This document shows positions 20,229 through 45,700 of a stretch of DNA of 64,000 nucleotides, one piece after another; within the stretch, counting starts at the first letter, position 1; every line of letters begins with the position of its first letter. The position numbers and the translations under genes are program-made. The stretch comes from Eledone cirrhosa (taxonomy: Eukaryota): the NCBI GenBank assembly GCA_964016885.1, contig OZ024740.1:376588001-376652000 (forward strand), written 5' to 3'. The notes beneath the pieces are model-generated. The model was not told the origin of the DNA. It made no database searches and saw only the letters and a list, made by a program, of their open reading frames with translations.

Positions 20229-20406
20229 ATATATATATATATATATATATATATATATGTGTGTGTGTGTGTGTGTGTGTGTGTGTGTGTGTGTGTGTGT
20301 GTGTGTGTGTGTGGGTGTGTGTGTGTGTGTGTGTGTGTGTGTGTGTGTGTATGTATGTACTCAATGATATTAAATAAATGGAAACTATGTTTCTAAAACC
20401 ATATTC

Positions 20407-20465
20407 ATTCTATTATATATATTTCAAGGGTACCAAAAGTTTGGTACGCTATCATCAGATAAAAT
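20407..20465 (-). ncRNA. Type I hammerhead ribozyme (left inverted arm)
   Basis: Minus strand: attttat-CTGATGA-tagcgtaccaaacttttggtaccctt-GAAA-tatata-TA-atagaat. Confidence 0.8.
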
Positions 20466-23330
20466 ATGAAGTGTGTTTTATAAATGTTGACATAACCAAG
20501 GAAAATACAACTTAACGGTTCGACTTTTCCTTGGATCGTGAAGGGATAAGAGAAGAAAAGTCAGATATTTCAAATTACTAAGATGAGTATGCAAATGAGG
20601 TTTAGGTAAAAGGGCTGAAAAAACTTTATTTTAGACGCGATGGATAATTTAAATAATTATGATAAGTTTTTGTATGCGTAGAAAAGAAGAGAAATGAAGA
20701 AGAGCTAGCATTTACGTTAATTTGGGGGAAAACAGTGGAATATGATTCCAGAGTTTAAATTAAAATTTATATTAAGTGTTATAATATTGTATATATAATC
20801 AATTAGATTTTATGGTGAATTATGGTTGTAAGTATTTTTATTTTATTTTAATAATTGCGTATGTATTAGTATTATAGAGATAGAAATAATTTACAATTAT
20901 TAGTTGTTTATATATCAAATATGAGTTACGAAGGATGTTGATTTTTGATCCCATAGTGATATCAAAATTGTTTTTTCTGTCGGCTCTTGTCGAGAGATGA
21001 TTATTAAATTGTATTAGTGTTTTACGTGTTGTTAGAATTAATTCATTTCATCACTAATAGAATTTAATAATCATCTCTGGACAAGAGCCGACAGAAAAAA
21101 CAATTTTGATATGATTATGGGATCATCTGACTCGGCGCAACTGACGGACCTCGTTGGATTATTTATTAATAATGTACTACATAGGAAAATTCCAGAAATG
21201 ACCGGAGGTTTATATCGTGACGATATGCTGCTTTTAATTGAAAACCATAGCAATAGTAAAATTAATAGGAAAAGAAAAATCCATAATACAATATTTCAAC
21301 AACTACAATCTTAAGTTAGAAATAGAGAATAACTACAAAATCGTTAACTTCTTAGATGTAACCTTAAACCTGAGCACATGTCTTTACTATCCTTTCCATA
21401 AAATCAACCAAAATCTAAATTATGTAAGTTTCAATTCTAATTATTCTAGAAGTATTAAAAACATTATTATCAATAGCGTCCAAAAATGGATTTCACGCAT
21501 CTCCGCTAATAAATATATCTTTTGATGATAAAGCTGAATATTATAATGAAGCTTTACATAGAGCAGGATACTCGAATAAAATTAAATACATAGATAACAA
21601 TAACATGACATATCATCCTAGTATTAAGTTAAACACTAAACAAAACAAAAAAACTAGAACTAGAAATATTATTTGGTACTCTCCCCCATTCTCATTAAGC
21701 GTTAAAACACCTTTAGCAAAGCTATTCTTTAAAGCACGAGATAAATGTTTTCCTAAAGCCCACAGATACCACTCTATTTTTAACAGACACACTATAAAAC
21801 TATCCTACTCTATGAACATAGCACAAAAAATAAATAGAATTAATAATAGAAACTTAAATTTAAACCCTACCCAAAGTAACCAACATAGCAATAATAATAT
21901 GTCTAACAATAATACTCAGAATAATAGTACCGTTCTGAACAACAATAACCCCAGTAAATGTAACTGTAGAATCAAATCAAAGTGCCCTTTACAAAATAAT
22001 TGTTTAGACAAAAACCCGTAGTTTATAAATGCACAGTTGAAACTTGAGACAAAATGTTTAACTATGTCGGTGCCACTTCAACAAAATTTAATGAACGCTG
22101 GAATAACCATAATCATATATTTAGGAGATCTGATTACAAATCTTCTACTTCACTTTCACATCTAATTTGGAACTTAAAAGACAACAATATAGACTATTCA
22201 ATATCTTGGGGAACGATTTCGATAGCAACTGCATACCGAAATATGGCTATATCAAGATTCTGTAAATTGTGTTTCGAAGAAATCTTTTATATAATTAACT
22301 GTCAAAACTCTATTAATCTCAGAACAGAATTATTTTCTTCTTGTAGATATCGCCAACATTCTACGTTCATAACTATTTCTAATTTATAATAGTCCTATAC
22401 ACCTTCAAAATGATCCTACCTTTTTAAAAATTTAAATGTAAATTTTTTTTATATTTTTAATATATTTAATATTTCTTTTTAATTTTTGATATCTCTAAAT
22501 TTTTTTTTAATATCTCTAATATTTCTTATATTTTTAATATATATATTTAATATTTTTAATTCCGACATTATTTTAATTCTGACATTATTTTTAATTCTGA
22601 CATTATTTTTCTAATGACATCCATCTAAATATATTTTTTTAGATGTAGATACATAATCTTTAAATGACATTCTGATAATTTACATTTTTGCTCTCTTTTT
22701 GTTATTCAAACATTCACATATCTGTCGACTAAATTAATTGATCTCACAGAAAATAATGTATAATTTTCTCTTTATATTTTGGAGTAAATTACTCATCAAA
22801 TTTAACGGTTAACAAACAAAATTCGAGTTATCTTTCCTTTCTCAATCATTCATAAACATATTATGTTTGATAATCTATATAACCTCGCTAAATAAATAAT
22901 ATTCTGAAAACATTTTCAATGTTGAACAACATTTTTGAATCGACAAATTGTTCTACTCTCACAACTTGAACCACCTATTTTTTAAGTAAAATAAAAATAA
23001 ACATCCTTCGTAACTCATATTTGATATATAAACAACTAATAATTGTAAATTATTTCTATCTCTATAATACTAATACATACGCAATTATTAAAATAAGATA
23101 AAAATACTTACAACCATAATTCTCCATATAATCTAATTGATTATATATACAATACTATAACTCATAATATATATTTAATAACGTTTTTTTCAGCCCTTTT
23201 ACCTAAACCTCATTTGCATACTCATCTTAATAATTTGAAATATCTTACTTTTTTTCACTGTCCAAGGAAATCTTGAACCGTTAAGGCATATTTTCCTTGG
23301 TTATGTCAAAATTTATAAAACACACTTCGT

Positions 23331-42590: not shown

Positions 42591-42728
42591 CATTATTTCT
42601 GAAGACAGTATATATATATGTGTAGGTATGTATATTCCCTCTGATAGTTTGTAAAAATTTTACATAGATCTATATGATATACATACCAACACACATATAT
42701 ATATCCTAGAAACGATCGTAAAATGATG
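42591..42728 (+). ncRNA. Type I hammerhead ribozyme with ~100-nt stem II (right arm)
   Basis: cattattt-CTGAAGA-[..tatatatatgtgt.ggtatgtatat...atatacatacc..acacatatatata..]-GAAA-cgatcg-TA-aaatgatg: 8-bp stem I, palindromic stem III ACGATCGT, GUA cleavage after 42720. Confidence 0.85.
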
Positions 42729-45700
42729 AATTTTTTAATATAAGGAACTGTTTCTTTGTTTTTATTCATTATTTTTATTAATTTATCTTGACTCTGTTTT
42801 CCTGTATTTTTCATCGAAAAAAGTTTTGAATACATCTTCTCTTTTCATGATGTTCGGATTACATTGAGTTCTTCATACGGATTGGACACTACCGTACATT
42901 TTGGTAGATTTATCTACACACATATATATGTATATATATATATATATATATATATATATATTAAAGATTAGCGAAAGGGAGTATATCTATGCAGAACTAA
43001 TAAGATATCTGCAGATACTCCACCCTCACGACACCTTCGGTGTATATCTGTGATTAATCAGGGCACTGGGATATGTTAGTAACTACGTCAGTACACATCT
43101 TGTGAAGCTGGGCTTCACAGAAACAAAGAGAACACGACTAGTTAGGAAATTACAAGTCCAATCCAATAGTAAATCCAATGGAATAGTAAAAATATGTAAA
43201 ACATTCCAAACATTCTGCATGTAATAACTGAATGTGCACATATACAGATACAAAACATATGCACATGCACACATATAATTTACAACATACACATCCAGAC
43301 ATAACATCCGTACCTGCAGACACATGCATGCAGATATGCGTGCATATATTCGTAATTGATGTTGTCTAAATTCCAATGAAAGAGATTTGATGCATTTCAT
43401 ATGTCGTATTTCATTAAATCCTCTTCGTTATTTTTCTTTCAGAATACAAAGACATGTTGATATCAGTACCTAATTCTCGCATAACAGCCTGTGTAATATT
43501 TATTCACATTGTAAAGAATTGATTATATATTACCATACGAATGACATCATTAAAATGATTATTTTAGAAAGTACAAACTAAATTGATACACAATTATGAA
43601 AACGAACCTTCCAGACAGGAAAATATATATTTTCGAAATCCAATTATTCATTATACAGATCTCAAACATGACATAAATCAATTGTATTTATTCTCAATTA
43701 CTATTCATATCATTATATTGGATAGGATTGATAACATAATCTATGTCATTGTTAATTATATATGTTATGCGTTAACGGTTAAAAGTTTAAATGATATTGA
43801 CATTATAAGTATCATCTGAAAACAGGAAAGTACAACAGACCCAGTGAGGGAACTACATATATATCGCTTGTTGTGCCCCCAGATTACAAATGTTATTGCA
43901 GAGGCCTTTTTCATTCCCTAGTAACACATTAGGTTGTGAATATTATTTTGATTATTTTGAAATGTTATATTATCTCCACAAATCCATATTCCGGCCACGC
44001 AGCACTTGCAAGATTGGATATTCTAATTATGCCGAAGATAACAATGTTATACACATCTATTAAGGAAGTAAACGATGGAAATGTGGTTCTAGCTCCGTTA
44101 GTAAGTTTCCCGTGATGTGATTAAATTCAAACTACTGCTTACATTTAATGTCATTTACATGAAACCTCTTAGCAGTTGGATCATAATTTGTTCCAAACAA
44201 TATCGAACTTAAGATGTATACCCGACTATATGTGATATTAGTAAAATAGCCAGTCCTGATAGCATTACGTGAAGATAAAATAGCTCACAAAAATGCTAAA
44301 TTTAAGTAAAATGAAAGTCGGCCGTTCTTAAGTTAATCATGCTATGAAGATGTTCCTCTTTTATGTTGTAAATTGGTGCATATAATGTCGAATTACATTT
44401 ACATCGTCTCTGAATGAGTTCCATACTGACGTCAAGAAATTCGACATATAACAATACGAGTAAGTGTAATATGAGTGTGACAATAAGTAAAGGAATAATC
44501 TTTCGAATTTATATCACTTGAATTGCTTTAAATAGTTCTTTGGCTTGTGTGTTATATACAGTACAGTATATAGTACATTTCTTTGCTGGTTAAATTCAAT
44601 AGCATCTCCAAAGTTCTCTTTCCGCGTAATATTCATTAAGTATTTTGTATGGTTTTACATGTTTGTCTCTAAATCTCCCTTTGAATTTATAGTTTAAACC
44701 TAAATATAAAGATATGATGTGTTGAGTATATATATGTTACATATTCGTTATTCACTCCTGCATTGCAGTCAACTAATCAATTCATCATTTTAGAACCAAA
44801 CCAAAATGAAACGAGAATAATACATAAATCTATTGTTACTATATTTTCACTGAACTATCCCGATTCATACAAAAATTTATATTACTGAGGCACATAATGC
44901 AAACAATATAATGTCTCCTATCAACTGAATATCTTCGTCTAGTCGAGGTCTATCAATCGTCTGCGTTGTTGAAATGGCTTCATATCTAAAAGAAATTATA
45001 TTAATGTAGCTTAGCGACTGTTTGTCTTCGGCATGGTACTAAATAATGATATGTCTATTACAGCATTAGACATTTAATGTCCTCAACAATGGACATCAGC
45101 TTAATAGAAACTTAATGCGTTTCTCCCATTGTCATTGAACATAAGTTTTCTAAATTCTGGCAACTATATGACGATATCTTGAGATAATAAACTTATTTAT
45201 TTTATTTTTAATTCATTTTATGAATGAAATTCTTATAGAAAAGAGATATTCGATAATAGTTCGCTGCATCATATTTTTTTTCACTGATATTTATCATTTT
45301 AATTATGGGCTATTCAAACTTTCCATATATCATGCATTAATGTCACACGGCAGTAAGTGAAGTAAAATACAAACATTTTATATTTAGAAATAAAATATAT
45401 TATGTTTACGAAAATATACACTATGATACCAAAATTTGTTATAACCTTAGAATACATGTATCTTTATTATAGAAATTATACGCAAGTGAATTATGTTTTC
45501 CTTAATATATCTGCATGCATCCCAAGATACATTTTGTACTTTTATGAAAGAAAACCTAACCCAAAGCTGACAATTAAAATGCAACATATTTCATATACAT
45601 TTGAGATATATGTTTATATAACTTCTTGTTAATAGATTATGATGTATTATATAGATATATAAATGTATTATCTAAAGACATTTTCCTCTGAAATTCTTTC

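Follow-up and report, generated by a model that had tools for sequence, protein, structure and literature searches.

The closest described relatives of the elements treated here are the Hydra-clade Penelope-like elements (PLEs), in which a C-terminal GIY-YIG endonuclease (EN) follows the reverse transcriptase (RT), the protein carries RWK, DKT, CxCx5C and CxxC plus CxH motifs, a hammerhead ribozyme is present and nearly every family targets (TA)n microsatellites (Craig 2021, PMC8557442). For PLEs, the same paper describes inverted 5′-truncated copies, a bias towards (TA)n and a 30–40 bp tail that is often one-ended, and it names the origin of the inverted repeats and tails as an open question (PMC8557442). 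Naiad PLEs instead have an N-terminal GIY-YIG domain and DKA, and are without a canonical hammerhead (PMC8557442). The Penelopes of Adineta vaga have head-to-head inverted pseudo-long terminal repeats (pLTRs) with a 31-bp tail on one of them, junction palindromes and asparagine-rich inserts (Arkhipova 2013, PMC3846280), while the Poseidon protein PAc from Anolis, a predicted dimer, cuts and extends both target strands and starts reverse transcription at two sites that bound the tail (Frangieh 2024, PMC11167929); statements drawn from these papers refer to the accessible parts of their text. Here, we analyse a window of 64,000 nt from the 3.0-Gb genome of Eledone cirrhosa (GCA_964016885.1, contig OZ024740.1, positions 376,588,001–376,652,000), which holds five PLE inserts of four families, and find that inverted pairs of these families combine one short with one long 3′ end by a near-strict rule.

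The inserts were located through self-comparison of the window, direct reading of the sequence and mapping on natural copies from the same genome. Self-comparison places inverted arms at 20358–23438, 32998–33508 and 38185–42786, and shows the insert at 15 kb to be homologous to the end at 42.7–42.9 kb; the refined limits of the inserts are 15043–15291, 20358–23529, 29618–29857, 32998–33598 and 38185–42918. The first and last of these belong to family A and the remaining three to families B, C and D. All five have their 3′ ends pointing outward, with a left arm that stops at a short 3′ end (S) and a right arm that continues to a long 3′ end (L), located further 3′ than S. The asymmetric layout reported in a first-pass annotation of the window is thus present at all five places and in four families. 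The arms are as follows:

15043–15110, minus strand: family A S arm of about 65 nt, with its start immediately past the hammerhead cut site and (TA)8 as outer flank.
15102–15291, plus strand: family A L arm, tail at about 15158–15291; (TA)n outside.
20358–21035, minus strand: family B S arm with an internal deletion, hammerhead core 20458–20414; compound (TA)15(TG)50 outside.
21035–23529, plus strand: family B L arm with the C-terminal half of RT and GIY-YIG, hammerhead 23338–23382, tail at about 23439–23529; (TA)n outside.
29618–29695, minus strand: family C S arm, decayed; (TA)17 outside.
29696–29857, plus strand: family C L arm, hammerhead 29714–29744, tail at about 29782–29857; short TA, then degenerate (TG)n outside.
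32998–33274, minus strand: family D S arm; (ACAT)n(AT)n outside.
33272–33598, plus strand: family D L arm, altered hammerhead-like core 33439–33471, tail at about 33509–33598; adjoined by a long interspersed nuclear element (LINE).
38185–41209, minus strand: family A S arm with 5′-truncated RT and GIY-YIG, hammerhead 38375–38251; (TTA)19 and short (TA)n outside.
41208–42918, plus strand: family A L arm with a 2-nt overlap at the join, a short interspersed nuclear element (SINE)-like insert at 41907–42102, hammerhead 42599–42720 with a stem II of about 105 nt, and tail 42787–42918; (CA)2(TA)n outside.

The pairing rule was counted across the genome with core queries upstream of S, which favour neither end type. 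For each genome query, the best 40 of 900–3000 first-look candidates were scored, and loci were fetched as 10-kb pieces with ids in the L0xx–L3xx range. Within the 136 loci read, S and L ends are near equal in number (107 S, 110 L). After removal of 11 of 70 head-to-head rows (coverage <0.85, locus edge, or a 7-bp artefact), and with the tail-selected loci L064–L100 and L175–L180 excluded, 59 contiguous head-to-head pairs remain: 53 are S+L, one is L+L (L144), none is S+S and five have one end at a minor site. Since independent choice allows at most half of the pairs to be S+L, the 53 of 54 observed among pairs with both ends at S or L (P about 3e-15) show that the two sites are used non-independently, one S and one L per pair, a point that goes beyond the first-pass annotation. 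A second sample came from tail-only queries (89 loci, a few of which recur in the first), where an inverted arm abuts in 56 loci and ends at S in 49, at L in none and at a minor site in two, with five left unassigned. Selective loss is an unlikely cause of the excess on reasoning, because S+L pairs are as palindromic over their common length as S+S or L+L pairs would be. The architecture is real, non-random and largely explained, in that these are Hydra-type elements with a known layout; what the census adds is the near-strict S+L rule and tails of this length. The rule sharpens the published description of a tail that is often at one end, for which the accessible text of PMC8557442 offers no count, and with it the origin of the layout becomes directly testable in vitro. 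A full-text literature search, with subscription papers mostly outside its reach, returned no PLE paper that counts end pairs, none with the phrase twin priming and none with tails this long, and end pairing is not addressed in the accessible text of bioRxiv 10.64898/2026.07.22.740005 or PMC9977147.

Arms also occur singly. Lone S arms (L031, L035, L041, L057) and lone L arms (L051, L052, L053, L066) have (TA)n on both sides, and S therefore works alone as a start site. The window holds one such copy:

17764–20231, plus strand: family C copy that stands alone and ends at S, with RT ahead of GIY-YIG and the hammerhead core at 20164–20193; (TA)n on both sides.

The elements are Hydra-clade PLEs as placed by their motifs, and the Naiad label given in the first-pass annotation is wrong. 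Translations read by eye have RT followed by GIY-YIG in A, B, C and D, and the N-terminus of family A opens directly with the RT-associated region, without an N-terminal GIY-YIG. DKT, changed from DKG, is found in the A, C and D proteins and in the family B DNA of L126; RWR, a conservative change, stands at the place of the N-terminal RWK motif in A, C, D and L137; and the CxCx5C linker is found in A, B, C and L137, while the D copy has lost one cysteine. The C-terminus carries CxxC and CxH or CxY, and the GIY-YIG core is without an internal cysteine pair. Pfam does not name the proteins, giving a single weak GIY-YIG match (E 0.049) in one search and none in another. At least 120 homologues match, and those listed bear no clade names. 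Compared to Naiad PLEs, the likeness lies in the (TA)n targets, the inverted copy and the tail, whereas the C-terminal EN, DKT and the hammerhead cores of A, B and C set the present families apart. The Hydra clade is matched in domain order, DKT, the cysteine motifs, (TA)n targets, partial tandems, inverted 5′-truncated copies and a tail at one end, and A, B and C carry minimal hammerhead cores. On the other hand, the tails here are 66–137 nt rather than 30–40 bp as stated for PLEs, the length of family A, which includes an asparagine-rich insert, is about 3.7 kb rather than <3 kb (PMC8557442), RWR stands in place of RWK and the family D hammerhead core is altered. Under the earlier label, Hydra-type families that are abundant in this genome, with 900–3000 first-look candidates for each query, would be annotated as Naiad. 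In the family A open reading frame (ORF), the asparagine-rich insert covers about 95 amino acids past the RT thumb region (39773–40100; also L046 and L170) and resembles those of the A. vaga Penelopes.

Each of the four families has two sharp 3′ ends. In natural reference copies of A, B, C and D, the distance from the hammerhead cut site to S is 65, 52, 37 and 35 nt, respectively, and L lies a further 137, 95, 66 and 90 nt beyond S; the arm extensions of about 30–60 and 80–135 nt estimated earlier are close to these. Families A, B and C have minimal type I hammerhead cores with a stem I and a palindromic 6-nt loop, while in family D the core reads CAGAAGA in 77 of 80 motif matches, stem I is not clear and the loop is non-palindromic; Rfam scored no hammerhead in the five inserts. 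Hammerhead cleavage is probably not what sets the S and L ends, because family D keeps both despite its altered core, and the ribozyme mutants in PMC11167929 agree. The earlier statement that the left arm runs past the hammerhead in every insert fails at 15 kb, where the insert holds none: both arms begin just behind the cut site, as they do in L287 and L295. Such arms were found in just 1 of 29 loci of one query, which ranks such loci lower. Hammerhead-cleaved RNA may have been the template in these cases, and a stall at stem I would give the same arm start.

In full units, the tail sequence does not end at L but leads into a following unit, with its 5′ region and start codon, and one copy in the window shows what follows L:

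15499–17400, plus strand: family D copy, decayed, in which the sequence continues across S, the tail and L as far as the ORF.

A motif repeated after both S and L stands out as sequence similarity only in family D (0 of 51 null windows, 0–40 nt); the similarity is weak in C (14 of 131) and absent in A (62 of 141). An RNA with its 5′ end fixed some 10 nt ahead of S is not supported, as most near-full-length family C copies read through this position into another unit. Three observations concern single families. Family D has a minor third end (L137, L154, L166, L242, L257), which falls on a TATATA inside the tail, about 40 nt from its beginning, and partners S in some inserts and L in others. 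The S arms of family B (L304–L330) have a repeated stop about 165–182 nt upstream of S, in 12 of 17 S partners, which would be a strong stop or an RNA end. A family A subgroup carries an identical 235-nt internal duplication of the 3′ region (L068, L224, L235, L238, L275, L278, L292, some of which are one locus), a sign of several family A source elements.

The targets are consistent with the motif-based placement. Of 246 ends at S or L, 193 lead directly into (TA)4. The same tract is met at 2.5% of positions picked at random in the window and at 6.6% of those picked in the 10-kb loci, so (TA)n flanks are well above background. The earlier claim that the inserts abut microsatellites holds to this extent, with one exception at family D, where (TTA)n at 33582–33608 is largely the element's own tail end, followed by the LINE, and not a target repeat. 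Both S and L overlap (TA)n by a few bases, and the flanks at times repeat the last bases of the element (CA, TCTA, TG, TC) at both end types alike, as expected for base-paired priming. The self-complementary nature of (TA)n is plausibly what lets both strands prime. Pairing with TA alone does not pick the sites, since longer internal TA runs, such as that in the family A hammerhead stem II and the run 40 nt behind L, were never seen as 3′ ends in the samples. The latter belongs to family A itself and is a (TA)n that varies in length and lies in the 5′ part of its unit (L070:8990–9110; L036; L048; L063).

The two arms of a pair share a source. Minor-allele sites are common to both arms in 183 of 483 cases in A, 62 of 302 in B and 48 of 328 in D, compared to 5.4%, 3.9% and 2.2% after re-pairing, so that true pairs share 5–7 times more. 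Divergence within a pair is below the between-pair mean in 16 of 17 pairs in A, 15 of 15 in B and 10 of 16 in D, with family A arms of one pair differing by 0.6–3.4%. A SINE-like insert lies at one place of the family A hammerhead stem I in L036, where both arms have it, and in L047, L051–L053 and L058; from this shared position, a source element seems to have carried it.

The reach of the arms bears on how they were made. In the 38–43 kb insert, 1643 reference positions, RT included, are in the S arm and absent from the L arm, as had been noted of its left part. Across a set of 54 pairs (including six tail-selected family A loci and L103, and drawn from A, B and D), 33 have the S arm extending further 5′, 20 have the L arm doing so, and one is tied. 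Since the S arm outreaches the L arm in 33 of 54, a single target-primed cDNA folding back cannot have produced most pairs, which extends the first-pass argument against simple fold-back well beyond the one insert on which it was made; an S-primed cDNA, in turn, cannot fold back into an L arm because it has no tail to copy. In 19 of the 49 short S+L pairs, the arms stop within 12 nt of each other, where re-pairing predicts 8.8. Pairs with a further-reaching L arm number only 5, where it predicts 12 (each value was attained by 0 of 5000 shuffles). Tail-only L arms that stop 3–15 nt past S make up 7 of 30 in family D (2.2 expected, P 0.007) and 5 of 30 in B (P 0.05), and two tail-only L arms of family C stop at S (L343, L359). 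The tied stops, the deficit of further-reaching L arms and the tail-only L arms favour two enzymes on one template. Junctions vary from locus to locus and overlap by at least 1 base in 32 of 62 rows, often at small palindromes, a count inflated by BLAST extension and given without a null. Two candidate patterns were rejected: short family C hairpins are not one fixed element of the miniature inverted-repeat transposable element type, as their centres differ among 23 inserts, and a fixed start of L arms at 41208, as if they came only from a 5′ pLTR, is a query effect, as full-length L arms exist (L046).

We propose that both cut target ends probably prime one RNA, one at each site. The GIY-YIG domain would cut both strands of (TA)n, and an RT dimer on the 3′ region of one RNA would set one DNA 3′ end at S and the other at L, aided by 2–5 nt of pairing with TA. 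Each cDNA would then extend 5′-ward and halt randomly or at RNA structure, while the trailing, L-primed enzyme would stall at S, stop with the leader, or displace the leader's cDNA. The two cDNA ends would finally be joined, often via a few shared bases, and priming by only one end would leave a lone S- or L-ended arm. The two-ended target-primed reverse transcription with two preferred start sites proposed in the first-pass annotation thus fits every test run, although its core is already in print (PMC11167929). Twin priming might even be obligatory, with the RT dimer loading both ends of the double-strand cut on two fixed sites and copying the RNA twice, so that the enzyme behind would push off the leader's cDNA, a tentative suggestion that we hold less firmly. 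If true, the tail is the spacing between two active sites on the RNA, and the layout is accounted for across all endonuclease-bearing PLE clades.

Several points weigh against the proposal. In bulk, the start sites of PAc did not differ between the top and the bottom strand (Frangieh 2024, PMC11167929). The shared alleles fit one RNA but also follow from two RNAs of one source locus or from later arm-to-arm gene conversion. In long pairs, the excess of further-reaching S arms falls short of significance (33 vs 20, P 0.10), and stops near S are not enriched in family A (2 of 29, P 0.37). Many pairs share 1–2.7 kb of doubly copied sequence (L046, L063, L069), which would need either long strand displacement by these enzymes on one RNA or two template units. 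Symmetric short pairs meet at small palindromes, which fold-back fits equally well. Finally, no empty target site was seen: the listed contigs of four sequencing runs on 37600–43400 include none that crosses the junction and are uninformative.

A rival reading is two-ended priming on two RNAs, or on two units of a multimeric RNA, from one source locus and with an asymmetric S/L complex, which we consider unlikely. It accounts for S+L pairing, shared alleles and kilobase overlaps without strand displacement, and suitable templates were available, since arms that exceed one unit (L070 and most of the 30 family C loci) imply that multimeric or circular templates exist. Palindromic hammerhead loops may allow dimerisation, and A, B and C have palindromic 6-nt loops; family D, however, obeys the rule although its core is altered and its loop is not a palindrome. 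Priming on two RNAs alone also leaves three features without an account: L arms made of tail only that end at S, too many tied stops, and too few L arms that reach further.

Self-priming, on an antisense RNA or by fold-back of the first cDNA, could likewise yield an inverted repeat, of which the endonuclease would trim or resolve one arm at S. Antisense self-priming (PMC3846280) and a tail formed by EN-mediated resolution (PMC8557442) are both proposed in print, junction palindromes and symmetric short pairs agree with them, and geometry alone does not rule against antisense self-priming plus trimming. Yet L-primed fold-back cannot give the 33 pairs in which the S arm reaches further, S-primed cDNA is without a tail to copy, lone S and lone L arms between (TA)n tracts show that S starts alone, and flank repeats of the last element bases fit base-paired priming at both end types. 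Sense RNA was, moreover, extended on both strands in vitro (PMC11167929). Self-priming is therefore improbable. Independent insertions into one microsatellite, later rearrangement or assembly artefact are very improbable: nesting of the families within common (TA)n tracts does occur, as do neighbours arranged tail to tail (L159, L168), but the retained pairs are contiguous without a microsatellite gap (coverage ≥0.85), pair-private alleles are shared even though family A arms differ, junctions vary between loci, and independent events would yield S+S and L+L.

Priming of one RNA by both cut ends can be set beside three known systems. Compared to PAc, the likeness lies in two start sites at the limits of the tail, with uncleaved RNA serving as the template of PAc (PMC11167929). 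PAc belongs to another clade, its start sites lie in the ORF rather than 5′ of the start codon, and no target homology is found there, whereas the S and L ends here overlap (TA)n by a few bases; inverted products are not addressed in the accessible text of PMC11167929. The A. vaga Penelopes have the same inverted pLTRs, one-sided tail, junction palindromes and asparagine-rich inserts; antisense self-priming was proposed for them (Arkhipova 2013, PMC3846280), while in the present families, arms that are not nested and S arms that stand alone speak for two target-primed cDNAs. That inverted pLTRs and 3′ tails are known in Penelope, as the first-pass annotation stated, is borne out by both PMC8557442 and PMC3846280. 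With regard to inversion by two primers, the resemblance is to LINE-1. In LINE-1 twin priming, which Ostertag and Kazazian reportedly described in 2001, two target strands prime one RNA and the inverted segment is joined by microhomology; its second primer is said to act at variable internal sites and its segments barely to overlap, whereas both sites here are fixed and close together and the arms usually overlap.

Other repeats in the window lie near (TA)n or related tracts. A minus-strand LINE (RVT_1, E 4e-24) at 33600–38120 separates the tail of family D from the insert of family A. It is bordered by (TTA)n on either side and may have divided a (TA)n site that was once single. At 28911–29602, (TA)n tracts enclose a tandem of two 315-bp units and a short inverted arm; the units hold a hammerhead (Rfam HH9 at 29 bits, under its threshold), and the whole looks like a retrozyme inserted with the same layout as the PLE inserts. 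The stretch 27765–28509 holds a minus-strand unit with a CTGATGA core, present as two direct copies of 215 nt with (TA)n on both sides, which is probably a fifth family in partial tandem. More short repeat families flanked by (TA)n are found at 23829–24129 and 30911–31200, and at 15291–15423 and 23625–23776.

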